Source of the DNA: Anaerolineae bacterium
GTDB taxonomy: Bacteria; Chloroflexota; Anaerolineae; B4-G1; DUEL01
DNA length: 57,402 bases
Assembly (NCBI GenBank): GCA_034435875.1
Contig: DAOTWL010000023.1
Location: 1-57,402 of the forward strand
Direction of reading: 5' to 3'
Part shown: one piece after another, positions 1 to 51,988 of the stretch
Position numbering within the stretch: position 1 is the stretch's first letter
Layout of the letters: the number at the start of each line of letters is the position of its first letter
The notes under the pieces: generated by a model
The model's input: only the letters and a program-made list of their open reading frames with translations
What the model was told of the DNA's origin: nothing
The model's database searches: none
Position numbers and translations under genes: made by a program

Positions 1-196
1 CACGGAGCGCAGCGGAGTGCCGTCCAACGCGACTCCGCTTCGCTGCGTCGCTGACTACGAACGCCTGGATGTTCGTAGTCAGGCACGGAGCGCAGCGGAG
101 TGCCGTGACGCGACTCCGCTTCGCTGCGTCGCTGACTACGAACGCCTGGATGTTCGTAGTCAGGCACGGAGCGCAGCGGAGTGCCACCGGAAAGCG
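1..196. repeat. REP/BIME-like array: ~35-nt hairpin units in alternating orientation, 81-bp period
   Basis: Units GTTCGTAGTCAG-GCAC-N13-GTGC-CG at 71-105 and 152-186, plus a partial unit at 1-22. They alternate with inverted GCGAC..GTCGC variants at 28-63 and 109-144. Same family as 6002-6035, 13417-13452, 22607-22641, 22771-22968 and 25618-25790. Confidence 0.85.
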
Positions 197-8006: not shown

Positions 8007-8020
8007 CCCTCCTTCTCACT

Positions 8021-8069
8021 CACGTTTCACGTTTCACGTTTCACGTTTCACGTTTCTCTCTTCACGTTT
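8021..8069. repeat. heptanucleotide tandem repeat (CACGTTT)x5 plus 2 degenerate units
   Basis: cacgttt at 8021, 8028, 8035, 8042, 8049 and 8063. Fills the gap between the anti-sigma stop and the toastrack start. Confidence 0.9.
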
Positions 8070-8605
8070 CAGGAAGCCACCGGCTGCCAGCGGCGCAGCA
8101 GGCCCCACCACAGGCCCCCCAGAAGCAGCGCCGTCGTCAGGATGCAGAGGGCCAGCGGCAGGGTCTGGACGACCAGCGCGCCGGCCAGCAGGCCCAGGGA
8201 GTTCAAAAGCAGGCGGGCCGCCCCGAGAAGGTGTTCCAGCAGGACGCCCCCACTGTGGGAGAGGGCCACCAGGAAGCCCGCCCAGCCGGGCAATGTCCAG
8301 AGAATCGGGAGGAACCCGACGAAAAGGACAAGAGCGGTCCCCGCGGCCAGCGCCAGGCCACCGAAAACGGCGCGCCGCCGGGCCCGGCGCCGGTCCATCT
8401 GCGCCATCACCCGCCCGACGAACCCCGGCGGTGGGGAAAGGATCGGCGCATGGCGCAGGACTTCCTCGGCGGCCTGCAATTGCTCCCACCGGACCCGGCA
8501 GCGATCACAGGCCACCAGGTGAGCCTGCAGGGCCTGCCACTCTTCGTCCGGCAGTTCGCCATCCAGTGCTTTCATCATTTTTTCCAGAGCCGTTTCACAC
8601 TCCAT
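8069..8605 (-). CDS. anti-sigma factor (zf-HC2 type, membrane-anchored)
   Basis: Trimmed to ATG 8605. MECETALEKMMKALDGEL..HLVACDRCRVRWEQL, followed by TM helices. Overlaps the sigma gene end by 11 nt. Confidence 0.75.
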   Translation of the reverse strand: MECETALEKMMKALDGELPDEEWQALQAHLVACDRCRVRWEQLQAAEEVLRHAPILSPPPGFVGRVMAQMDRRRARRRAVFGGLALAAGTALVLFVGFLPILWTLPGWAGFLVALSHSGGVLLEHLLGAARLLLNSLGLLAGALVVQTLPLALCILTTALLLGGLWWGLLRRWQPVAS

Positions 8606-21491: not shown

Positions 21492-22603
21492 GCGCCGTTC
21501 TGATGCAAGGAGACGAGGCCTGTGCGGAAGGTGCCATCGCCGCCGGATGCACCTTCTTCGCCGGATACCCCATTACCCCGGCCACCGAAATCGCCGAGCA
21601 CATGGCCCGCCGTCTGCCCCAGGTAGGCGGCGTCTTCATCCAGATGGAGGACGAGATTGCCTCCATCTCGGCGGTCATCGGCGCGGCGGTGGGCGGGGCC
21701 AAAGCGATGACCGCCACCTCCGGTCCCGGCTTCAGCCTGATGCAGGAGAACATCGGCTACGCGGCTATGGCCGAAATCCCCTGCGTCATCGTGGACGTCC
21801 AGCGGCTGGGCCCCTCCACCGGTCGCCCCACCAGCCCGGCCCAGGGAGACGTGATGCAGGCCCGCTGGGGCACCCACGGCGACCACCCCGTCATCGCCCT
21901 CTCCCCTTCGTCGGTGCGGGAGACCTTTGACCTCACCGTGGCGGCGTTCAACTTCGCCGAGAAGTACCGGACGCCGGTCATCCTGTTGATGGACGAGGTG
22001 ATCGGTCACATGCGGGAGGGGGTGGAACTCCCCGACCCCGCGACCATAGAGCGCGTGGACCGGGCGGAGACGCTGGTCCCGCCGGAGTGGTACAAGCCCT
22101 ACGAGAACCTTCCTTCGGACGTCCCGCCGCTGATCCCCTTCGGGCGGGGGTACCGCTACCACATCACCGGCCTGCACCACGACGAGCGGGGCTATCCGAC
22201 CGAGCGGCCCGATGAAATCGGCCCCTGGCTGGAACGGATTTTCCGCAAAATCCAGCGCAACCTTTCCGACATCCTGCTCTACGAAGAGGACGGGGCAGAG
22301 GACGCGCGGACGCTGGTGGTCGCCTACGGCGCGGCGGCCCGCTCGGCCCGCCACGCGGTGCGGATTGCCCGGCAGCGGGGCCGCAAGGTGGGCTTTCTGA
22401 AGTTGCAGACCATCTGGCCCTTCCCGGAGGAAGTCGTGGAACTGGCGGCTCGCCGCGCCCGTCGGGTCATCGTCCCCGAACTGAATCTGGGCCAACTGGC
22501 GCTGGAGGTGGAGCGGGTCGTCGGTCGGGACCGGGTGCGGCGGGTTAACCGGGCCGACGGCGAGATGATCAAGCCCTCCGACATTCTGGCGGCTATGGCG
22601 TGA
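21488..22603 (+). CDS. korA: 2-oxoacid:ferredoxin oxidoreductase alpha subunit
   Basis: MQGDEACAEGAIAAGCTFFAGYPITPATEI and MEDEIASISAVIGA. 371 aa. Confidence 0.85.
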   Translation: MSAVLMQGDEACAEGAIAAGCTFFAGYPITPATEIAEHMARRLPQVGGVFIQMEDEIASISAVIGAAVGGAKAMTATSGPGFSLMQENIGYAAMAEIPCVIVDVQRLGPSTGRPTSPAQGDVMQARWGTHGDHPVIALSPSSVRETFDLTVAAFNFAEKYRTPVILLMDEVIGHMREGVELPDPATIERVDRAETLVPPEWYKPYENLPSDVPPLIPFGRGYRYHITGLHHDERGYPTERPDEIGPWLERIFRKIQRNLSDILLYEEDGAEDARTLVVAYGAAARSARHAVRIARQRGRKVGFLKLQTIWPFPEEVVELAARRARRVIVPELNLGQLALEVERVVGRDRVRRVNRADGEMIKPSDILAAMA

Positions 22604-22606
22604 TCC

Positions 22607-22641
22607 GTTCGTAGTGAGGCACGGAGCGCAGCGGAGTGCCG
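22607..22641 (+). repeat. single REP unit
   Basis: GTTCGTAGTGAGGCACGGAGCGCAGCGGAGTGCCG, beginning 4 nt after the korA stop. Confidence 0.8.
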
Positions 22642-22674
22642 TATCCTGCTCCGTGCGACCTGCGACCCTGCGAC

Positions 22675-23937
22675 ATGCACATCGGCATTGACTACACCGC
22701 CGCCATCCAGCAGCGGGCGGGAATCGGGAGATATACCCGAGAACTGGTCGGCGCGCTGCTCCGGCTGACCGTTCGAAGTCGGGCACAAAGCGACAGCGGA
22801 GTGCCGGTTCGTAGCCAGGCACGAAGCGATAGCGGAGTGCCGGTTCGTAGTGAGGCACGAAGCGATAGCGGAGTGCCGTACCCGGAAGAGGACTACCGCT
22901 ATACCCTCTTCGCGGCCGCCGGCCGTCCGTTCGTTCGTAGTCAGGCACGAAGCGATAGCGGAGTGCCGTTCGTCCCATCCGTCCGCCTCCGCTTCCTGCC
23001 CATCAGCGACGAGTGGGCCGCCCGCCTCTGGCATCGGGCCCGCCTGCCCATCCCGGTGGAGGTCTTCACGGGCCCGGTGGACCTCTTCTACTCCCCGGAC
23101 TTCGTCCTTCCCCCCACCCGGCCGCGCACCCGGACCCTGCTCACGGTCCACGACCTCTCCTTCCTGCACTACCCGGACCACTTCGTCCCCAAACTGGTGC
23201 GGTATCTGGAGCGGGTGGTGCCGGCGTCGGTGGCCCGGGCCGACCGGGTGCTGGCGGATTCGGAGGCCACCCGCGCCGACCTGATCCGCCTGCTGGGGAC
23301 GCCGCCGGAGAAGGTGGAGGTGCTCTACAGCGGGGTGGACGCCCGCTTCCGCCCGGAGCCGGAACCCGGAGAACGGGAACGGTTGCGGGCCCGCTACGGC
23401 CTGGACCGGCCCTACGTCCTCTCCGTGGGCACGCTCCAGCCGCGCAAGAACTACGTCCGGCTCATCCGCGCCTTTGCCCGCCTCCCGGATACCGGACGGG
23501 TGCTGGTCATCGCCGGCGGCCGGGGCTGGCTCTACGCGTCGGTCCTGGAGGAGGCGGCCCGTCATCCCGACCGGGTGCGGGTCCTGGGGTTTGTGGAGGA
23601 TGAGGACCTGCCCGCCCTCTACCGGGAGGCGGACCTCTTCGTTTTCCCGTCGTTCTACGAGGGGTTCGGGTTGCCGGTTCTGGAGGCGATGGCCTGCGGG
23701 GTGCCAGTGGTCTGCTCGGGGGTTTCCAGTTTGCCGGAGGTGGCGGGGGACGCGGCGCTCCTGGTGGACCCGGAGGACGAAGAAGGGCTGAGTCGGGCCA
23801 TGCAGCGGGCGCTGGAGGATGAGGAACTGCGGGGGGAGATGACGGTGCGAGGGCTGGCGCGCGCCGCTCTGTTCACCTGGGAGCGGGCCGCGCGGCAGTT
23901 GCTGAGGGTCATAGGGGAACGGGCCGGGCGCTTCTGA
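22675..23937 (+). CDS. GT-B fold glycosyltransferase (family 1/4) carrying in-frame REP insertions
   Basis: MHIGIDYTAAIQQRAGIGRYTREL N-terminus. C-terminal domain FPSFYEGFGLPVLEAMACGVPVV (E-x7-E region). Confidence 0.85.
   Translation: MHIGIDYTAAIQQRAGIGRYTRELVGALLRLTVRSRAQSDSGVPVRSQARSDSGVPVRSEARSDSGVPYPEEDYRYTLFAAAGRPFVRSQARSDSGVPFVPSVRLRFLPISDEWAARLWHRARLPIPVEVFTGPVDLFYSPDFVLPPTRPRTRTLLTVHDLSFLHYPDHFVPKLVRYLERVVPASVARADRVLADSEATRADLIRLLGTPPEKVEVLYSGVDARFRPEPEPGERERLRARYGLDRPYVLSVGTLQPRKNYVRLIRAFARLPDTGRVLVIAGGRGWLYASVLEEAARHPDRVRVLGFVEDEDLPALYREADLFVFPSFYEGFGLPVLEAMACGVPVVCSGVSSLPEVAGDAALLVDPEDEEGLSRAMQRALEDEELRGEMTVRGLARAALFTWERAARQLLRVIGERAGRF
22771..22878 (+). repeat. three abutting 36-nt REP units inside the GT4 ORF
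   Basis: Units at 22771, 22807 and 22843 (GTTCG[AT]AG..GGCAC..GTGCCG), translated as VRSRAQSDSGVP/VRSQARSDSGVP/VRSEARSDSGVP. Confidence 0.9.
22933..22968 (+). repeat. fourth 36-nt REP unit inside the GT4 ORF
   Basis: GTTCGTAGTCAGGCACGAAGCGATAGCGGAGTGCCG, translated as VRSQARSDSGVP. Confidence 0.9.
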
Positions 23938-23950
23938 AAGTGCCCGGCCC
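23921..23950. terminator. hairpin between convergent genes; the GT4 stop codon lies in the loop
   Basis: GGGCCGGGC-gcttctgaaagt-GCCCGGCCC, followed by gttcttctc. Confidence 0.5.
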
Positions 23951-23957
23951 GTTCTTC

Positions 23958-24779
23958 TCACCCCAGCATCCGCCGGATGGTCTCCGCCAGACGCTCCACC
24001 TCAAAGGGTTTGCGGATGACCTCCGACACACCGGCCCGGCGGACGCGATCCACTTCCTGGTCCTCGCCGTAGCCGGTGAAGGCGATCACTTTCACGTCGG
24101 GGTTCTGCTGCCGCAGCGCCTCCACCAGCGCCGCACCGCCCATCCCCGGCATCACCACGTCGGTGAGGACCAGGTCCACCTGTTCGGCGGCGTACACTTC
24201 CAGTGCCTCCCGCCCGTCTGCCGCCTCCAGCACCCGGTAGCCCAACTGTTCCAGCACTTTCCGCCCCGCCGCCCGCAGCGCCGGATGGTCCTCCACCAGC
24301 AGAATCATCTCCCCGCGACCGGTGGGCAGGGGGACTTCAGCCGTCGGCCCCAGCGCGGGCGCCTCCTCCGCCACCGCGGGCAGGTAGACCCGGAAGGTCG
24401 TCCCTTTCCCCACCTCCGTCTCCACGCCGATGTGGCCGCCGTGCTGCTGGACGATGCCGTAAACCTGCGCCAGTCCCAGCCCCGTCCCCACGCCCCGGGG
24501 CTTGGTGGTGAAGAACGGCTCAAAGATGTGGGGCAGTACCTCCGGCGGGATGCCCGTACCCGTATCGGCGACCTCTATGCAGACCCACTCCCCGGGCCCC
24601 ATCCCCATCAGTGGCGGCCTCTTCTCCGGCCCCACCGTCAACCGGGAAAGGCCGAGACGAATCTCCCCACCCTCCGGCATCGCGTCCCGCGCGTTGAGGA
24701 CTATGTTGACCACCGCCTGCCGCAGGCGGGTCGGGTCGGCCTGAACGGTGAAGGGCCCCGCCCTGGCCACCAGGCGCAA
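23958..24779 (-). CDS. hybrid histidine-kinase fragment: HATPase_c plus receiver domain, with no HisKA or sensor
   Basis: VQADPTRLRQAVVNIVLNARDAM (N-box), DTGTGIP, GTGLGLA, then REC (ILLVEDHP..LVLTDVVMPGMGG). The frame is closed by TGA ~75 nt upstream. The only start is TTG. Confidence 0.6.
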   Translation of the reverse strand: MRLVARAGPFTVQADPTRLRQAVVNIVLNARDAMPEGGEIRLGLSRLTVGPEKRPPLMGMGPGEWVCIEVADTGTGIPPEVLPHIFEPFFTTKPRGVGTGLGLAQVYGIVQQHGGHIGVETEVGKGTTFRVYLPAVAEEAPALGPTAEVPLPTGRGEMILLVEDHPALRAAGRKVLEQLGYRVLEAADGREALEVYAAEQVDLVLTDVVMPGMGGAALVEALRQQNPDVKVIAFTGYGEDQEVDRVRRAGVSEVIRKPFEVERLAETIRRMLG

Positions 24780-25026
24780 CCGGATGGTCTCCGGAGTGGT
24801 AGAAGCCGCAGATGTGGGAGGCGGGAGGGAAGCGGGGGGTAAAGGATTCAGCCATCTGACTTCTGGTCATTACGCCCCTTTGTTTACGGACGGGATAAAG
24901 CCCGTCCGCCGGCCCCGGTTGGAGGGGCCGGGATTGAGAATAACTTTTTTTCATTATACCACTTTACAGATAAAAGCAAACGGTGCGGGGGTGTGGGGCG
25001 TCTTCTCCCACCGCAGAGGGCGCAGT

Positions 25027-26622
25027 TCACCTCGCCGCCTCCGCCTGTGGGCCGACACGGCCCGACCGCCCCCACACCCGGAGCGTATACCCCCACGGGA
25101 TGAGATACGTCGTCGCCACGGCCATCAGGGTGATGCCCAGGGCGTTCCCCCAGTTGGCCAGATGGGGAATCCAGAACCAGACGAAGCCGTAGACCACGTA
25201 GGAGAAGACCACCGTCAGGCTGAAGAGGCCGGCCTGGAGCGGGGCCTCCGGGCGGGGGAAGAGGGCCGCCAGCGCCACCGCCCAGGTGACGTACCAGGGC
25301 TGGAACCACGGGGTGGCGAAGAGCAGGAGGAAGAGCATCAGATCAAAGGCGTGGCGGAGGACGGCCCCAGGACGCGCCCAGGTCCGGGCCAGTTGGAGGA
25401 TGAAGGCGACGGCGAAGGCGCCCAGCGCGGCCGACTGGGCCATCCTCCCGGCGGCCATTTCGTTCAGCCCGACCAGTCGCAGGGTGAGAGAGAGAACGGC
25501 GGGGAGGGAGTGGGTGAGGAGGCCGGAGCGGGTGGAAAGGTTGGTCAGCGCGTCCAGCGGTCGCGGCAGAGAGAGGTACGCCAGCGCCACCAGCGCGAGG
25601 CTGAGCATTACGGTTGCCAGTAAGCGACGCAGCGAAGCGGAGTCGCGCTGGACCGTTCGTAGTAAGCGACGCAGCGAAGCGGAGTCGCGTTGGACGGCAC
25701 TCCGCTGCGCTTCGTGCCTGACTACGAACGTTGGTGGTAAGCGACGGGGAGAAGCGGAGTCGCGTTGACAGCACTCCCCCGCGCTTCGGGCCCAGGCCGG
25801 CAGGAACAGCGGCAGGAGGGGCACCATCGGGATTTTGACCAGAAAGGAGAGGGTGAGGGCCGCCGTCATCCCCAACGGGCGGCGCCGTTCCCAGAAATAG
25901 ATGCCCAGGAGAGCGAAGGCCATCATCGCCGCGTCGTTGTGGCCGTTGGCGGCGAATTCGTAGAGGACCAGCGGGTTCCAGGCGAAGAAGGCCAGTCCCG
26001 CCGGGGCCAGGTCGGGCTGGCGGCGGCGCAGGACGGCGTAAATCAGCAACGTCTGGGCCAGGTAGGCCGCAATAGCGACGCCCTTAAATCCCAGGAGGTT
26101 CAGCGCCAGGCTCTCCCGCCCCAACACGCCCACCACCAGGGCGCTGATCCAGGTCCATAGGGGGCCGTAGTTGGAAGGAGCCATAAGGTAGGCAGAGTAG
26201 CGGGCGAAGGCCGTATCCGGCAGATGCCCCGGCGGGACCACCAGCGGGTTCTCCCGGTAATAGAACAGTTCCTCCCCATGGGTGACGTAGTCCACCACAT
26301 CCCCCGCGCCGACGGGATAGGTGAGGCTCACCAGCAGTGCCAGCGTCAGGCCGCAGAGGAGAATCAGGGCCGGGGAGACCTGCCGGGGATGGCGGCGGCA
26401 GGTCCGGTAGACCAGAGCGTAGAGGCCGAAGAGGAGCAGGAAGGTCACCAGGAAAGCCAGGGCCGGTAAAGGCTCCCGCCGGGCAATCTCCGGGAAACTG
26501 ATGGGGGTGCGCGCGACGTGGGCGAACAGGGAATAGGGCAGGACCAGCCCGAAGAGGTAAAGGAGGAAAGAGGCCGCGAAGGCGGCGAATATCACCGCTG
26601 GCGGACGGAGACCGGATTTCAT
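25027..26622 (-). CDS. polytopic GT-C-like glycosyltransferase (DUF2029-like) carrying in-frame REP insertions
   Basis: More than 12 hydrophobic segments. YPVGAGDVVDY, NGHNDAAMMAF, and PWFQPWYVTW near the C-terminus. ATGA overlap with the polyprenyl synthase gene. Confidence 0.6.
   Translation of the reverse strand: MKSGLRPPAVIFAAFAASFLLYLFGLVLPYSLFAHVARTPISFPEIARREPLPALAFLVTFLLLFGLYALVYRTCRRHPRQVSPALILLCGLTLALLVSLTYPVGAGDVVDYVTHGEELFYYRENPLVVPPGHLPDTAFARYSAYLMAPSNYGPLWTWISALVVGVLGRESLALNLLGFKGVAIAAYLAQTLLIYAVLRRRQPDLAPAGLAFFAWNPLVLYEFAANGHNDAAMMAFALLGIYFWERRRPLGMTAALTLSFLVKIPMVPLLPLFLPAWARSAGECCQRDSASPRRLPPTFVVRHEAQRSAVQRDSASLRRLLRTVQRDSASLRRLLATVMLSLALVALAYLSLPRPLDALTNLSTRSGLLTHSLPAVLSLTLRLVGLNEMAAGRMAQSAALGAFAVAFILQLARTWARPGAVLRHAFDLMLFLLLFATPWFQPWYVTWAVALAALFPRPEAPLQAGLFSLTVVFSYVVYGFVWFWIPHLANWGNALGITLMAVATTYLIPWGYTLRVWGRSGRVGPQAEAAR
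25618..25790. repeat. 4-5 REP units (mixed orientation) inside the GT-C-like ORF
   Basis: AGTAAGCGACGCAGCGAAGCGGAGTCGCG twice, then CGGCACTCCGCTGCGCTTCGTGCCTGACTACGAACG, GGTAAGCGACGGGGAGAAGCGGAGTCGCG and a partial unit. Translated as QRDSASLRRLL.. / FVVRHEAQRSAV. Confidence 0.85.
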
Positions 26623-27663: not shown

Positions 27664-28965
27664 CTAATAACTCAAAGAAGCAGGACGCAGGAAAGATGGG
27701 CATCCTGCTTCCTGCATCCCGCATCCACTCCCGAGGATGCGCCAGATTTCCCGCAGGGTCGGGCGTTTGCCGTAGATGAGCAACCCCATCCGGAAGAGTT
27801 TGGCCCCGAACCAGAGCGCGGCCGGAATGGAGAGGAGCAGGGCACCGATGCTCCCGGCGACATCCACCCAGGGCACCTCCCCCAGTGGGACGCGCAGCAT
27901 CATCATCGTCGGCGCGGTAAGGGGGAAGAAACTGAGGGCCCGGGCCAGCGGCGCGTTCGGGTTGATCATCACGAAACTGGCCAGCATATAGGGGATGACG
28001 GCGATGAAGGAGAAAATGCCCGCCAGTTGCTGGCTCTCCCGCATCGTCGTCCCCAGCGCGCCCACACCCGCCATCAGGACAGCGTAGAGCAGATAACCCA
28101 GGAGATAGTAGACCACACCCAGGACGAAGACCCGCGCGGGGATGCCAATACGGCCCACCATGGCCAGGAGGCTCGCCATGCCGCCGGTGAAGCCCCAGGC
28201 GCTCGCCAGCCAGATGAGCACCTGGGTCAGCCCCACCGCGCCCAGACCCAGCACTTTCCCGGCCATCAGTTCGGTGGGGCGGACCGAGGAGATGATAATT
28301 TCCATGATACGGTTCTCCTTCTCCTCGGCGACGCTCTGGAGGAGGTAGCCGGAGGAGGAGAAAATGGTCATAATCAGGAAGACGGCCAGGAGGTAGGGGA
28401 CCAGGAAATTAAAAAACGTCCCCCCGCCTCGCTCCTGGCCCGTGCCGGAGATGATGCGGGATTGGAGCCTCTCCAGCGGGTCGGCAGCGCGGCGCCCGAA
28501 GGCCGGGTCCACCCGGCCCGCCAGCAGGTGGGTGATCAGAAAGTTTCGCACCCGCTCCGAATCCGCCAGCGCGGCCTCGCCGAAACTCTCTCGCGTCAAC
28601 GCGGTGACCTCTCCCGTCTCCAGGTAATCCTCGCTGATGACCCGCACAGCCTGGAGTTCGTCAGTGCGCAGCGCGGCTTCCGCCGCTTCCTGGCTCTCGT
28701 AGAGGATAAAGGACTCCTGGTACTCCGGCAGGATGGGGGTAAAGTACCCGGAGCGGTCCACGACGCCGATGGGCTTGCGGCCCACGTCAAACTGCCGCTC
28801 CAGCCAGTCCGCCCCAGCGTCGCCCCGGGGCAGCAGGAGCGCGGTGAGCACCAGGCCGATCACTCCCAGCGCCGGGACGATGGCCGTCATAATGATGAAT
28901 CCGGTCCGGCGGACGTTGGTCAGGTACTCATGCCGGGCGATGGTCCAGATTTTGCGCCAGTTCAT
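27664..28965 (-). CDS. ABC-2 type transporter permease (NatB-like)
   Basis: MNWRKIWTIARHEYLTNVRRTGF, then a large extracytoplasmic loop and 5 C-terminal TM helices. AGGAGGA lies before the ATG. Confidence 0.8.
   Translation of the reverse strand: MNWRKIWTIARHEYLTNVRRTGFIIMTAIVPALGVIGLVLTALLLPRGDAGADWLERQFDVGRKPIGVVDRSGYFTPILPEYQESFILYESQEAAEAALRTDELQAVRVISEDYLETGEVTALTRESFGEAALADSERVRNFLITHLLAGRVDPAFGRRAADPLERLQSRIISGTGQERGGGTFFNFLVPYLLAVFLIMTIFSSSGYLLQSVAEEKENRIMEIIISSVRPTELMAGKVLGLGAVGLTQVLIWLASAWGFTGGMASLLAMVGRIGIPARVFVLGVVYYLLGYLLYAVLMAGVGALGTTMRESQQLAGIFSFIAVIPYMLASFVMINPNAPLARALSFFPLTAPTMMMLRVPLGEVPWVDVAGSIGALLLSIPAALWFGAKLFRMGLLIYGKRPTLREIWRILGSGCGMQEAGCPSFLRPASLSY
27679..27730. repeat. 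short GCAGGA/TCCTGC heptamer hairpin (mini version of 51848-51988)
   Basis: AGCAGGACGCAGGA-aagatgggca-TCCTGCTTCCTGC, followed by atcccgcatcc. Overlaps the last codons of the permease ORF. Confidence 0.7.
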
Positions 28966-33491: not shown

Positions 33492-34649
33492 ATGAGAATC
33501 GGAGTTCTGACTGGAGGGGGCGACGTCCCTGGACTGAATCCCTGCATCAAGGCACTGGTCTATCGGGCCGTGGATGAAGGCCACGAGGTGGTCGGCATCC
33601 GCCGGGGATGGGCCGGACTCCTCTACTACAACCCCGACGACCCATCTCCCCAGCCGGAGAACGCGATCCCCCTGGATAAGGCCATTGTCCGGACCATTGA
33701 CCGGACCGGCGGCACGTTTCTCCACACGTCCCGCACCAATCCCAGCCGGGTGGCGCCGGATAAGGCCCCGGCGTTCCTGAATCCGGAGCAGTTCCCGGTG
33801 GATAAAAACGGGACCGTGGACTTCACCTCCCACGTCCTGCGGGTACTGGAACACCTCAAGATAGACGTCCTGGTGCCCATCGGCGGTGAGGACACCCTGG
33901 GGTATGCGGCCCGAATCCATCGTGAGGGCTTTCCTATCGTTAGCATCCCCAAGACGATGGATAACGACGTCTTCGGTACCGACTACTGCATCGGCTTCTC
34001 CACCGCCGTTACCCGCAGTGTCCGCTTTATCCACCAACTCCGCTCCACCGCCGGCTCCCATGAACGCATCTGCGTGGTGGAACTCTTCGGCCGTCACTCC
34101 GGCGAGACCTCTCTGATCGCCGCCTATCTGGCCGGAGCCGACCGGGCTATCATCTCGGAAGTCCCCTTTGACATTGAGAAACTGGCCCGTCTGCTGATCA
34201 AGGACAAGTACGAGAACCCCAGCCGCTATGCCATCCTGACTATCTCCGAAGGGGCGCGCGAGATCGGGAAAGACGTCATCCAGTCCGGCGTCCCCGATCC
34301 CTACGGCCACAAGAAACTGGGCGGCATCGGTGCCGTGACCGCCAAGCGGCTGGAGCAGATGACCGGCGAGGGGACAATGTGCCAGGAACTGGCCTACCTG
34401 ATGCGCTCCGGCGAGCCCGACGCGCTGGACATTATGGTCGCCGTCAACTTCGCCAATACCGCGATGGACCTGATCCAGGAGAAGAAGTTCGGCCGGATGG
34501 TGGCCCTGCGGGAAGGACGGTACACCGATGTAGGTGCCGAATCGCCGACGCTGGGAGTCAAGCATGTGGATGTCCGGGCGCTGTACGATGTGGACGAGTA
34601 TCGCCCCAAAGTGATGCACGTTCACGGGAAGCCGATGTTTTTGTACTGA
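33492..34649 (+). CDS. pfp: 6-phosphofructokinase, PPi-dependent-type signature
   Basis: [19 protein letters not shown] (Asp at the E. coli PfkA-104 equivalent) and PKTMDND (Lys at the 124 equivalent). Confidence 0.8.
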
Positions 34650-34686
34650 AGCGTGAAACGTGAAGCATGAAGCGTGACGTGAAACG
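34647..34686. repeat. heptanucleotide tandem repeat (GTGAAAC/GTGAAGC) x6
   Basis: tgaagcg tgaaacg tgaagca tgaagcg tgacg tgaaacg, between the two pfk genes. Reverse complement of the 8021-8069 unit. Confidence 0.85.
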
Positions 34687-35743: not shown

Positions 35744-36989
35744 ATCCGCCGCTGCTCAGGGCCACCGTCAGGTCAGCGCCGCAGGCTACCCGCAGGACGG
35801 GCACCCGCAGCGCGCGCAGCGCCGCCGCCAGTTCCTCCGTCCCGGGCGGGCCGCCGAAGGTGGCCGCGTCCAGCAGGACCACCACCGGCCGCAGCCCCCG
35901 GCGGACCAGTTGGTCTGCGGCCACCGCGACCTCCCGTCGGGTGGAGGGGGTAATCAGGACAACCGTGCTCCCGCGCGGGAGGTGGCGGGCCTGGACGCCC
36001 AGGAGTGCCGAAAAGGAGAGGTCGCCGTCGGCCCGAACCAGGGCCAGCGCCTCCAGCATCTTCCGCAGTTGCCGCCCGCCCCGGTCCGGCGGAAGGACCG
36101 TGAGCCCGGCCCCCTGGCAGACCAGCCCCACCGCCCGTCCCCGCCGCAGGAAGTACCGCCCCACCGAGGCGGCAATCGTCACCGCGTATTCTTCTGTGGA
36201 AGGCGGCAGGGTGACGGGGCCGAAGGGCCGCCAGAGGAGTTCGTCCGCCGGAGCGGCCGGGATGGAGGGAAGGGCGTGGTGGACGGCGCGCTCGGCGTCC
36301 ACGAACATCCAGACCTCCGCCAGGGGGTCCAGTTCAAACTCTTTGACGATGAGCCGGTCCCGGCGGGCCGTGCTGGGCCAGTGGATGCGGTTCAGGGGGT
36401 CGCCGGGGGCGTACTCCCGCACGCCGGCGGCGTTGGGGGTGATCTGGTGGGTCCGGCGGCGCAGCGCCTCCCCGCCGGGCAGGAGCCCCGGCGGCGAGGG
36501 GAACGACCGTACCTCCACCGTCATCGGGTAGACGACCAGGGTGGCCGTGGGGGGGAACTCTCGCCGGACCGGGAAGAGGCCGAAGGGGTCGCCGGAGCGG
36601 ATTTCGGTGGGGCCCAGGGGGAAGACGCCCCGCTGAGTTAAACGGAGACGCGCCCAATAGGGGTAAGCACTTTGCCCGCGAAGCATTGTTAATACCCGCG
36701 AGCTCCTTGTAACAGCAAGGGGCGACCGATCACGCACTTCCACCCACCATCGCGTCATACGGCCGGTGTTTTTAACTTCAAATCGCTCCTCAAGAATCTG
36801 CCCAACTTGAGCCCGGAAAATACGCGTCCGGCGACACACTTCTATTCCGCGCAATGCTGTCGCCGACCAGATGCGGCTGACCAGCAGGACCAGCGCCCAG
36901 AGATAGGTCAGATGGGCGTAGAGGGGGTTGCCGGTGAGGCCCAGGGCGAGGGCGCTGGCGGCGAAGAGTCCCAGGATGAGCCAGAGCAT
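35742..36989 (-). CDS. DUF58 domain protein (MoxR-associated, vWA-like)
   Basis: Two N-terminal TM helices. REYAPGDPLNRIHWPSTARRDRLIVKEFE motif. Confidence 0.8.
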   Translation of the reverse strand: MLWLILGLFAASALALGLTGNPLYAHLTYLWALVLLVSRIWSATALRGIEVCRRTRIFRAQVGQILEERFEVKNTGRMTRWWVEVRDRSPLAVTRSSRVLTMLRGQSAYPYWARLRLTQRGVFPLGPTEIRSGDPFGLFPVRREFPPTATLVVYPMTVEVRSFPSPPGLLPGGEALRRRTHQITPNAAGVREYAPGDPLNRIHWPSTARRDRLIVKEFELDPLAEVWMFVDAERAVHHALPSIPAAPADELLWRPFGPVTLPPSTEEYAVTIAASVGRYFLRRGRAVGLVCQGAGLTVLPPDRGGRQLRKMLEALALVRADGDLSFSALLGVQARHLPRGSTVVLITPSTRREVAVAADQLVRRGLRPVVVLLDAATFGGPPGTEELAAALRALRVPVLRVACGADLTVALSSGG

Positions 36990-36990
36990 A

Positions 36991-37046
36991 GCCGGAAGCC
37001 GATAGCCGTTAGCCGGTAGCCGATAGTCGGGAGTCGGTTGTCGGGA
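36991..37046. repeat. heptanucleotide tandem repeat (GCCGATA-like) x8
   Basis: gccggaa gccgata gccgtta gccggta gccgata gtcggga gtcggtt gtcggga. Spans the moxR-DUF58 junction and the last ~12 codons of moxR. Confidence 0.9.
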
Positions 37047-37986
37047 GGACGTCGCCGCCGGGGACGGGAACCTGGCGGAGGATTTCTTCCACCATCTCCT
37101 CGGCGGTCACGTCCCGCATCCGGGCCGTGGGGCCGATAATGACCCGGTGGCCCAGGGCCGGGAGGGCCAGCGCCTTCACGTCGTCCGGGAGGACGAAGTC
37201 CCGCCCGTGGATAGCCGCGCGGGCCTGCCCGGCCCGGTAGAGGGTGAGGCTCCCGCGCGGGCTGGCCCCCAGGTAGATGTCGGGGTATTCTCGGGTACGG
37301 CGGGTCAGTTCCACGATGTACCGCTTCACCGCCGGCGCCACATAGACGGCCCGGATGGCCTCCTGGGCCTGCAGCAACTCCTCCACCGAGGCCACCGTCT
37401 CCAGTTCCTCTATCGGATGACGGTACTGCTGGCGCTCCAGGATGCGCACTTCGTCCTCCACCGCCGGGTAGCCCAGGCGGATACGCAGGAAGAAGCGGTC
37501 CAGTTGCGCCTCCGGCAGGGGGAAGGTGCCCTCGTACTCAATGGGGTTCTGGGTTGCCAGCACCATGAAGGGGCGGGGGAGGGGCCGGGTGACGCCGTCC
37601 ACGGTGACCTGGCGCTCCTCCATGGCCTCCAGGAGCGCCGCCTGGGTCTTGGGCGTGGCCCGGTTGATCTCGTCGGCCAGGACGATCTGGGCCATGATGG
37701 GGCCGGGGCGGAACTCAAACTGACGGGTGGCCTGGTTATAGATGGAGACGCCGGTGACGTCGCTGGGGAGCATGTCGGGGGTGAACTGAATGCGGCTGAA
37801 GGAGCAACCCAGCGAGCGGGCGATACTCCGGGCCAGCATAGTCTTGCCGGTGCCGGGGACGTCCTCAATGAGCAGGTGGCCCTGGCAGAGGAGGCCGATG
37901 ACCACCAGTTCCACCACCTCCCGCTTGCCGACGATCACCCGCTCCACGTTGGCGATGAGCCGTTCGGCGAAGGATTGGACGGACAT
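37009..37986 (-). CDS. MoxR-family AAA+ ATPase
   Basis: [12 protein letters not shown] Walker [10 protein letters not shown] Walker [23 protein letters not shown]. Confidence 0.92.
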
Positions 37987-37989
37987 AGA

Positions 37990-38028
37990 GAATCGGGGAA
38001 TCGGGGAATCGGAGAATCGGAGAATGAA
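37990..38028. repeat. octanucleotide tandem repeat (AATCGGGG/AATCGGAG) x4-5
   Basis: gaatcggg gaatcggg gaatcgga gaatcgga gaatgaaa, immediately upstream of moxR. Confidence 0.85.
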
Positions 38029-50391: not shown

Positions 50392-51848
50392 CCCCCTTCC
50401 TTCGTCGCTGGGGGTGGCTTCTGGGGTTGCTGTTGGCGCTTCTGGCCTGCGCGCTGATTCCCGTCCCCGGCTACGTCATCATTGCGCCGGGAGGGAACAC
50501 CCCCCTCATCCCTGTCGCGCTGGGCCCGCAGATGCGGCTGGACCCGCCCTTCGCCCGCCCCGGCGACGAAGTCCGCCTCCACGTCACCGACCGTACCCCC
50601 TGGACCCACGTCCTTCTGGCCGTGAACGGCGTCGCCCTCCACCCGGAGTCCTGGGAATCCGGCCCGGGCGGACAGTGGACCTGGACGTTCCACCTGGCCC
50701 TCCCCACCGGCCCGTCGGAAATCGTCTTCTACCACAGTTGCGACACCGGCTGTCGGGAGCGGGGACGGATGATGCTGGGCGAGCCGCCGTCTCCCTCCTC
50801 CGCCCCGCTGCCCACCAAACTGGGGCTGGTCTTCCCCCACCCGGACCGGGACTGGCACGGGCGCAGCGGCTGGGCGGTGGAGGTCACCTACGTCCGGCGG
50901 GCCCAGGAGCCCGGCTGGGGGGTAGACGACCTGGCCGCGAAGGTGTACCGGCATCGGGCGAAGGGGTTGCGGGTGCTGGTGCGGGTGGACTACGACTACA
51001 ACCAGTCCATCCCGCCGACCGGCGACTATCTGGCCCTGGCGGAGTATCTGGACTACCTGGCGCGCCTGGCCCGGGACGACCGTCTCCGGGAAGTCTACGG
51101 CTACGTCCTGGGGAGCAGTTACAACGGCCTGGACCAGAACGCGCTGGCCCCCGACCGTCCGGTGACCCCGGAGTGGTATGCCCGGGTCTTCAACGGCTAC
51201 GGCGAACCCGTCCACCACACCGACAACGCCGTCCAGGTGATGCGGGCCGAAAATCCCCACGTCCGGGTGCTGGTGGGACCGGTCCGGCCCTGGAACACCG
51301 ACCAGGACGGCCTCCACAAGTACCGCGTGGATGCGCCCTGGCTCAACTACATGAACACCCTGGTGCGCGAGGTGGACGAATCGGCCCGGGCGAAGGCCGC
51401 CGCTGGGATCCCCCTGGCCGCCCCGGACGGCTTTGCCGTCCAGGCTCCAGGCCGCCCGGATGCCCCTGAACTGGGCGGGTCCGGCTCCGCAGAGCCTCAG
51501 ACCGACCTCCGGCGGCCGGAATGGAAGGGCGCCCAGGCCGGCTTCCGCGTCTATCGGGAGTGGCTGGACATCATCAACGCCTACCCGTCCACGCGGGGGC
51601 TCCCCGTCTACATCACCTCGGCCAACACCTTCATTCCGGCGGTGGGCGTCCCTCCGGCCCAGAATTATCCCCGGGGCTGGCTCCGTTCGGCCTTGGCGGT
51701 GGTGAACGGCGAGCCTCAGATTCAGGCCCTCTGCTGGTTTCTGGACGACCTGCCCGGGGACACCCAGTGGGAGAACTTCAGCCTGACCCGCCGTCGGGGC
51801 CGCCTGGTGGACGCGGCGGAGGAGTTTGAGGAACTGCTGAAAAGATAG
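50349..51848 (+). CDS. membrane-anchored hypothetical protein, possibly with a glycoside-hydrolase-like TIM-barrel domain
   Basis: TM segment WGWLLGLLLALLACALI, an Ig-like segment, then alternating beta/alpha pattern (GLRVLVRVDYDYNQ, YVLGSSYNG, RVLVGPVRPWN, PVYITSANTF). An in-frame GTG at 50388 gives a GTGA overlap with the kinase stop. Confidence 0.5.
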   Translation: MRTIRPADHAFQIVTPFLRRWGWLLGLLLALLACALIPVPGYVIIAPGGNTPLIPVALGPQMRLDPPFARPGDEVRLHVTDRTPWTHVLLAVNGVALHPESWESGPGGQWTWTFHLALPTGPSEIVFYHSCDTGCRERGRMMLGEPPSPSSAPLPTKLGLVFPHPDRDWHGRSGWAVEVTYVRRAQEPGWGVDDLAAKVYRHRAKGLRVLVRVDYDYNQSIPPTGDYLALAEYLDYLARLARDDRLREVYGYVLGSSYNGLDQNALAPDRPVTPEWYARVFNGYGEPVHHTDNAVQVMRAENPHVRVLVGPVRPWNTDQDGLHKYRVDAPWLNYMNTLVREVDESARAKAAAGIPLAAPDGFAVQAPGRPDAPELGGSGSAEPQTDLRRPEWKGAQAGFRVYREWLDIINAYPSTRGLPVYITSANTFIPAVGVPPAQNYPRGWLRSALAVVNGEPQIQALCWFLDDLPGDTQWENFSLTRRRGRLVDAAEEFEELLKR

Positions 51849-51988
51849 CAGGAAGCAGGAAGTAGGGAGCAGGAAGTAGGAAGTAGGAAGGAAAGATGCA
51901 AGACCTTTTTCCCATCCTGCGTCCTGCATCCTCCGTCCTGCATCCTGCGTCCTGCATCCTGCGTCCTGCATCCATCCCGCATCTTGCG
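51848..51988. repeat. two opposed heptamer-repeat blocks forming a long imperfect hairpin
   Basis: (GCAGGAA/GTAGGAA)x6 at 51848-51889 and (CATCCTG/CGTCCTG)x8-10 at 51912-51988. Each arm unit pairs with its opposite unit at 6 of 7 positions. Confidence 0.9.

Follow-up and report, generated by a model that had tools for sequence, protein, structure and literature searches.

In-frame copies of a dispersed GTAG-tagged REP element in the N-terminal domain of an Anaerolineae GT4 glycosyltransferase

A contig of an Anaerolineae bacterium (DAOTWL010000023.1, 57,402 nucleotides, here called the window) carries a gene for a GT4 glycosyltransferase whose open reading frame (ORF) runs through four copies of a repetitive extragenic palindromic (REP) unit of 36 nucleotides. 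The original prediction, made from the DNA letters before the present analysis, had described three abutting units and a fourth one 54 nt further on, and had proposed that the enzyme either tolerates the additional residues or is encoded by a silently dead gene. The gene and its units are the following:

22675..23937, plus strand: coding sequence of a GT4 (GT-B fold) glycosyltransferase, 420 aa, the host of the repeats (Pfam, AlphaFold2 (AF2), Foldseek, 120 orthologues)
22771..22806, plus strand: REP unit 1, whose terminal GTAG has decayed to GAAG; encodes VRSRAQSDSGVP, site A (consensus search, 4 mismatches)
22807..22842, plus strand: REP unit 2, encodes VRSQARSDSGVP, site A (consensus search and Tandem Repeats Finder)
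22843..22878, plus strand: REP unit 3, encodes VRSEARSDSGVP, site A (consensus search and Tandem Repeats Finder)
22933..22968, plus strand: REP unit 4, encodes VRSQARSDSGVP, site B (consensus search)

Site A is the connection between helix alpha1 and strand beta2, and site B is a variable loop after beta2; both belong to the N-terminal Rossmann domain. The predicted arrangement was recovered by two programs. Tandem Repeats Finder reports positions 22771-22878 as 3.0 copies of a repeat with period 36 (90% matches, score 174), and a pattern search finds 22807-22842, 22843-22878 and 22933-22968 with 0-1 mismatch, where 0 hits are expected (100 shuffles). The site A array is separated from the fourth unit by a 54-nt gap (22879-22932). 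From the ATG at 22675 to the stop codon ending at 23937, a single frame of 420 aa crosses all four units in the order MHIGIDYTAAIQQRAGIGRYTRELVGALLRL-T-VRSRAQSDSGVP-VRSQARSDSGVP-VRSEARSDSGVP-YPEEDYRYTLFAAAGRPF-VRSQARSDSGVP-FVPS..., and the units are read in it as VRS(R/Q/E)A(Q/R)SDSGVP. Predicted peptides across the junctions of the inserts include SDSGVPYPEEDYR, SDSGVPFVPSVR and SQARSDSGVPVR. As had been pointed out before, the unit is free of stops in four of its six frames (VRSQARSDSGVP, FVVRHEAIAECR, RHSAIASCLTTN, ALRYRFVPDYEP), while the remaining two contain stops.

Behind the repeats the ORF continues through the E-x7-E region, as predicted. The protein (P0125 in its 90% cluster) matches the Pfam models Glycos_transf_1 (PF00534, 7e-40) and Glyco_transf_4 (PF13439, 6e-11), and its E-x7-E motif is E329-x7-E337, with both glutamates invariant among the 120 orthologues. 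It has two Rossmann-like domains, a C-terminal Glycos_transf_1 domain and E-x7-E, as retaining GT4 enzymes do. The top Foldseek matches of its model are MshA, GlgM, sucrose-phosphate synthase, PglA, WaaG, BshA and PimB', with a Foldseek probability of 1.00 for MshA, GlgM, PglA, WaaG and BshA. A start codon downstream of the repeats, i.e. beyond 22968, was considered and ruled out. The first 31 residues are rich in glycine and are the most conserved part of the N-terminal domain; D6, Y7, T8, A9, A10, Q13 and G16-Y20 are invariant in an alignment of 22 sequences, and the N-terminus is partly invariant in the alignment of 120 orthologues. Since the family's conserved Gly-rich N-terminus is encoded ahead of the repeats, the true start lies upstream of them. 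A polyprenyl synthase gene and a gene of the MptA_B family (GT-C) are found nearby, and this gene content suggests that the GT4 enzyme may serve envelope glycoconjugate synthesis.

The closest orthologues without REP units are 371-395 aa long and ~80% identical to the window protein over the full length. They read ALLRL-PE(A/S)(R/Q)EAGH-RYTLFAAAGGQAVPADLPP(S/F)PAVRF, with a short alpha1-beta2 connection and a short loop after beta2; the REP-free allele L115, for example, reads ALLRL-PESQEAGH-RYTLFAAAGGQAVPADLPPFPAVRF, and L198 and L199 are similar. In the DNA alignment the flanks are conserved on either side of both sites, and REP-free versions of both loops are seen across seven aligned alleles and 120 orthologous proteins. 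Because these orthologues have conserved flanks but REP-free loops, the units are insertions relative to them. Related alleles, which are ~88-97% identical over the aligned positions, form a series in which the number of units varies among strains, as had been suspected:

Window: site A, three units; site B, one unit
P0123 / L114: site A, two units; site B, one unit
P0001 and P0124 / L001: site A, two units with a TCG spacer; site B, one unit
P0126 / L112 (independently in Logan assembly L113): site A, none; site B, two units with a TCC spacer
L115, L198 and L199: site A, none; site B, none

The frame is kept in every one of these variants. By synonymous divergence (dS), L115 with no REP is closer to the window than L112 with two units. 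Scanning metagenomes with the protein minus its repeats gave no further alleles; among the matches listed, the only close one was a contig already known. A protein search for other REP-decorated proteins with the 48-aa REP-encoded peptide as query returned nothing that scored.

It is scarcely credible that the array is an artefact of sequencing or assembly. Short-read assemblies of metagenome-assembled genomes (MAGs) do invite such a suspicion, and the window contig itself ends inside a REP cluster. However, four assemblies made independently in different projects (window, L001, L114 and L112/L113) have the same insertions at the same sites, and a typical read is longer than the 108-nt array.

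The spacing of the units depends on where they lie. Inside ORFs, neighbours in the same orientation are 36, 39 or 90 nt apart, all of them multiples of three (8/8); outside ORFs this is true of only 6 of 36 spacings, the commonest being 38 and 40 nt. The periodicity of 36/39 nt is therefore a property of the intragenic copies that survived and not of the family.

Whether the gene is alive was approached through selection and fold. Pairwise Nei-Gojobori estimates of the ratio of non-synonymous to synonymous substitution rates (dN/dS), made on 346 core codons free of gaps, are 0.07-0.19 between the three insert-bearing alleles and 0.16-0.20 between REP-less orthologues. As the three alleles have the inserts in common, their divergence accumulated after the insertion. 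In the N-terminal domain, the window and L001 differ by 13 synonymous changes and 1 non-synonymous change. These values bear on the alternative that GT4 is a recently inactivated pseudogene, whose ORF persists only because the 36-nt unit has stops in no more than two frames and because slippage by 36 nt keeps the frame automatically. Both of these properties are real, but they would give no reason for selection after the insertion that is no more relaxed than in REP-less orthologues. Nor would they explain why the frame holds at both insertion sites and across two independent spacings of 39 nt, when extragenic arrays favour 38 and 40 nt, or why the catalytic glutamates of E-x7-E have been preserved together with the Gly-rich loop. 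Inactivation is thus very improbable. As between the two outcomes put forward at the outset, the substitution pattern, the in-frame variants and the intact predicted fold favour tolerance: the gene is probably not dead, and purifying selection appears as strong in REP-bearing alleles as in REP-less ones.

The structural prediction agrees with this. With the 120-sequence alignment, AF2 yields a confident GT-B fold (mean predicted local distance difference test score (pLDDT) 90.2, predicted template modelling score (pTM) 0.89), in which helix alpha1 runs on into the first unit. The ten-residue blocks over the inserts are coil with mean pLDDT values of 60, 53 and 54 (residues 41-70) and 58 (residues 91-100). 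Whether the inserts are surface loops had been asked earlier; they are modelled as low-confidence coil outside the confident GT-B core, and would lie at the surface. Distant orthologues, too, are hypervariable in the loop after beta2, and some have unrelated in-frame repeats there; the loop is therefore permissive. The peptide encoded by the units is presumably neutral.

Two distant GT4 orthologues with other in-frame repeats were seen in L196 (1679-1796) and L197 (2209-2312). One distant orthologue has 16.9 copies of the heptanucleotide CAACCAG in the loop after beta2, and another has 9.5 copies of the octanucleotide TGCAAACT in a loop of the C-terminal domain. Since slippage by a unit of 7 or 8 nt would change the reading frame, these orthologues could be phase-variable glycosyltransferases of Chloroflexota.

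The identification of the units as REPs, which had been proposed from the locus alone, is borne out by their terminal tag, their structure, their dispersal and their organization in dimers. Each unit consists of the head GTTCGTAG, a spacer of 3-4 nt, a G+C-rich stem of 5 bp and a loop of 13-14 nt, 34-36 nt in all. Three stem variants occur (GGCAC/GTGCC, GCCAC/GTGGC and GCGAC/GTCGC). When seeds were picked on the 5' arm only, regardless of the 3' arm, 142 of 165 had an exactly complementary 3' arm, and this holds across the three stem types; compensatory changes therefore keep the hairpin paired. The stem itself is weak (-5.8 kcal/mol, z-score -1.5). A literature search for the head GTTCGTAG led to unrelated primer sequences only.

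The window has ~14 units in four clusters over 57 kb. One of these clusters is at the contig end:

1..185: REP cluster of extragenic units, in which orientation and stem type (GGCAC, GCGAC) alternate in the manner of bacterial interspersed mosaic elements (BIMEs)

The contig opens in the middle of a REP unit (1-22), and the assembly probably broke at the REP array. When one genome per species was scanned with GTTCGTAGTNAGSSACGNAGCG, other genomes gave at least 110 loci. These are labelled as Anaerolineae/Thermoflexus (Chloroflexota), Armatimonadota (including Fervidibacter), Planctomycetia, Verrucomicrobia and Hydrogenedentes, and the MAGs come from hot springs, groundwater, lakes and brine. 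A near-identical unit of ~34 nt with shared head and loop motifs (L002-L111) is thus present in MAGs whose labels cover at least five phyla, which is an unusually broad span for one REP sequence. Mis-binning may have affected some of these labels; yet several of the MAGs have many REP-bearing contigs, some of them longer than 100 kb.

Among 235 catalogued units, 216 lie outside confirmed ORFs and 19 (~8%) are intragenic. There are 59 pairs of inverted neighbours, of which 44 are tail-to-tail and 15 head-to-head; 51 of the 59 are heterotypic, a GGCAC unit being joined with a GCCAC or a GCGAC unit (e.g. L004 4128-4208, L006 2928-3003 and window 1-185). Since such pairs are heterotypic, any cross-pairing between the two units would be mismatched, while their own hairpins are perfect. 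In the BIMEs of E. coli, stem types Y and Z alternate in dimers, and the heterotypic pairs resemble them; by this analogy the pairing is a Y/Z-like rule. Short palindromes with a terminal GTAG, dispersed in mostly extragenic copies and in inverted dimers and clusters, are what defines GTAG REPs. Readings of the array as a CRISPR array, an intein or an intron were discarded; the units abut without spacers, measure 36 nt and are dispersed in both orientations.

Within the GT4 gene, the tag is lost more often than the stem. With a detector that demanded at most 1 mismatch in the head, GTAG is retained in 201 of 206 extragenic units (lost in 5) and in 13 of 17 intragenic ones. All four intragenic losses are in GT4 alleles (GAAG, GGAG twice and GCAG), and a further one, GGAA in L114, escaped the detector. 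The T of GTAG falls on the third position of an Arg codon in the GT4 frame, which makes three of these changes synonymous. By contrast, the 5-bp stems are perfect in all 12 intragenic GT4 units across the alleles, although loops and heads vary. Such tag decay would be expected of immobilized passengers under protein constraint; since the copies are not independent of each other, this is suggestive only.

One could read the perfect stems the other way, as a sign of co-option: the units would then supply variable hydrophilic loops that tune the enzyme, for instance through interaction with the membrane or a partner, or their hairpins would act as intragenic regulatory elements through mRNA stability, pausing or the binding of a REP-binding protein. 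That two envelope-glycosylation genes within 3 kb both have units, and that distant orthologues carry other in-frame repeats in the same loops, would fit this. Still, most orthologues lack any insert, unit number differs between near-identical strains, and the tag decays at synonymous positions in the genes (4/17 against 5/206 outside), as expected of passive passengers. The hairpins are as weak as stated above, and a scan of 22400-23200 found no Rfam family and no promoter-like or terminator-like site. We therefore regard co-option as unlikely, and tolerance of passive insertions remains the preferred reading.

Further units were found which the original prediction did not mention:

22607..22640, plus strand: a fifth REP unit with a loop of 13 nt, placed in the leader, which fills the 71 nt from the POR-alpha stop (22603) to the ATG at 22675
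25613..25763, orientations +,+,-,+ on the window strand: four REP units with GCGAC and GGCAC stems in a gene for an MptA_B/GT87-like polytopic membrane protein (25027-26622, minus strand)

The leader separates two genes that overlap in the relative L112, where there is no leader and the POR-alpha stop and the GT4 start share TGATG. The number of units in the leader also differs by strain, with 1 in the window, ~1.5 in L001 and 3 (+,-,+) in L114. The leader unit supplies a spurious GTG start at 22636 which was adopted in the annotation of P0123 (MPYPAPCDLRPCDMHIG...). Immediately upstream of the GT4 start there is also a TGCGACC-like repeat (22654-22678).

The units may have come into the gene by single-strand transposition by a REP-associated tyrosine transposase (RAYT), or by recombination with, or copying from, units nearby. 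In the second case, recombination, gene conversion or template switching from leader or intergenic units, followed by slippage, would have built the array. The stretch 22607-25763 holds three REP clusters in 3.2 kb, an abutting 36-nt array is the expected product of slippage, and all GT4 units are of the 14-nt-loop variant (GAAGCGAYAGCGGA) while the leader unit and the extragenic units of the window genome have 13-nt loops, which points to one founder amplified within the gene. But the intragenic units have neither the loop length nor the sequence of the leader unit, which is therefore not their direct donor, and a dispersal throughout and across genomes requires some mobility mechanism.

The searches for a RAYT have little power here, because they covered the 57-kb window, which is all that was covered of the host genome, and 8-kb blocks of other genomes (~800 kb of REP-bearing loci). 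Within this scope, tblastn with an approximate E. coli RAYT query gave a best E value of 0.9, a scan of all six frames for HUH and Tyr motifs gave 0 matches, and the ORFs between paired REP clusters are unrelated. The missing RAYT, which would speak for local copying, thus means little. On balance we hold local copying to be a possible but not a probable substitute for RAYT-type transposition. A weak match in the window at 2434-2577 was rejected; it lies inside a nucleotidyltransferase/HEPN gene pair. This pair consists of overlapping ORFs at 2084-2888, nucleotidyltransferase-like (with the motif GSHAYGTPDPDSDVDLLIE) and HEPN-like as judged by motifs in the translations only, and is likely an MNT/HEPN toxin-antitoxin pair.

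In the gene at 25027-26622 the units are in frame as well, with other stop-free frames in use (QRDSASLRRLL... and VVRHEAQRSAV), and the product is 36 residues longer than its L112 orthologue. That orthologue is annotated as PF26314 with a weak GT87 match, whereas the REP-bearing window protein matches no Pfam model. Two other Chloroflexota MAGs (L007 and L023) encode polytopic membrane proteins with 2-3 in-frame units at differing positions. Apart from the REPs, the window has many tandem repeats with units of 7-8 nt, mostly at or near gene boundaries: TCACGTT (8020-8071), GCATCCT (27700-27726), TGAAACG (34647-34686), ATAGCCG (36988-37047), GAGAATCG (37988-38025), AGCAGGA (51847-51890) and CATCCTG (51913-51973).

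Taken together, we consider it probable that genome-dispersed GTAG REPs colonized two connections of the GT4 N-terminal domain, and that the enzyme is translated through them and remains under purifying selection. In this Chloroflexota genome (Anaerolineae/Thermoflexia), GTAG-tagged REPs have entered the alpha1-beta2 connection and the loop after beta2. Copies would survive there if they offer a stop-free frame, if the inserted length is a multiple of three and if the encoded peptide is hydrophilic (as VRSQARSDSGVP is) and lies in low-confidence coil outside the GT-B core. Copy number would then drift by strain (3+1, 2+1, 0+2, 0+0), most likely through slippage or unequal recombination between units, and only the in-frame outcomes would persist.

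Several points weigh against this reading. At site B the net difference to REP-less alleles is ~6 codons and not a clean gain of 36 nt, so that the old loop was partly replaced or had already diverged. Differences in copy number between short-read MAGs could in part reflect assembly collapse, which cannot, however, account for the 3-nt spacers or for the 0+2 allele. The dN/dS values come from few MAG-derived alleles and are averaged over lineages, some of which predate the insertions, and it is from this selection that translation through the repeats would follow. Finally, the window and the REP-bearing loci did not yield a RAYT.

A more far-reaching reading would be that one GTAG element, either spreading horizontally or very ancient, has stayed nearly unchanged across phyla (Chloroflexota, Armatimonadota, Planctomycetota, Verrucomicrobiota and Hydrogenedentota), is arranged in strict heterotypic dimers, and seeds in-frame loops of variable copy number that diversify or tune envelope glycosylation enzymes (GT4 and GT-C-like membrane proteins), preferentially in the window lineage. 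We think this improbable.

The locus is of use in several ways. The alleles form a natural series, which shows that an enzyme of GT-B fold accommodates as many as 48 residues from REP units behind helix alpha1 and strand beta2 while selection on it is not measurably relaxed; permissive loops for the engineering of GT4 enzymes can be identified from the series. For annotation, it is worth knowing that a REP in a leader can create a false GTG start and that insertion suppresses the Pfam detection of the neighbouring GT-C-like protein. The locus also opens the spread of REPs in little-studied phyla to study.

The GTAG REPs are among the closest known systems. Families GTAG-1 to GTAG-24 have been described in Proteobacteria, Cyanobacteria, Chloroflexi and the PVC group, with intragenic GTAG and CGTC units in known genes of several species, where dimers encode 20-30 and clusters 43-82 residues; the authors argue that such inserts occupy linkers or loops that are flexible (Di Nocera et al. 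2013, PMC3733652). The units described here share the terminal GTAG and the short stem-loop, and their 5-bp stem and 13-14-nt loop fall inside the published ranges (5-13 bp and 2-20 nt; PMC3733652). They likewise have a high copy number, are mostly extragenic, form head-to-head and tail-to-tail dimers and clusters, and occur in part in frame inside genes, here encoding 12-48 residues. They differ in that the unit is set beside the numbered families by description only, in that no RAYT turned up in the loci covered, and in that a near-unchanged sequence occurs across a wider range of labelled phyla than the sharing among several species reported in that paper.

The second comparison is with the Rickettsia palindromic elements (RPEs), the classical example of such repeats inside genes, to which PMC3733652 also refers. 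Ogata and colleagues reportedly described these in 2000 as selfish palindromic repeats in protein-coding genes, tolerated without disruption of the fold. As at the GT4 locus, palindromic repeats lie in frame in coding genes and the host genes are functional. RPE-1 is ~100-150 bp long and occurs as single-copy insertions, whereas the units here measure 36 nt, start with a GTAG head, and form a tandem array and a single copy in strain-variable number. The resemblance is one of behaviour, as there is neither sequence homology nor agreement in length.

Contingency loci and other variable number tandem repeats also change in copy number between close strains, and glycosyltransferases are a classic class of host for them. 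In the GT4 gene, however, the unit is a multiple of three, so that the length of a loop changes and no on/off switch results, and the repeat is a dispersed REP and not specific to its locus. Intragenic REPs are already known, and this locus of an uncultivated Chloroflexota lineage adds no new kind of element or mechanism to them; what is new is the allelic series, the unrelaxed selection on the host gene, and the presence of the same REP in MAGs of several labelled phyla.

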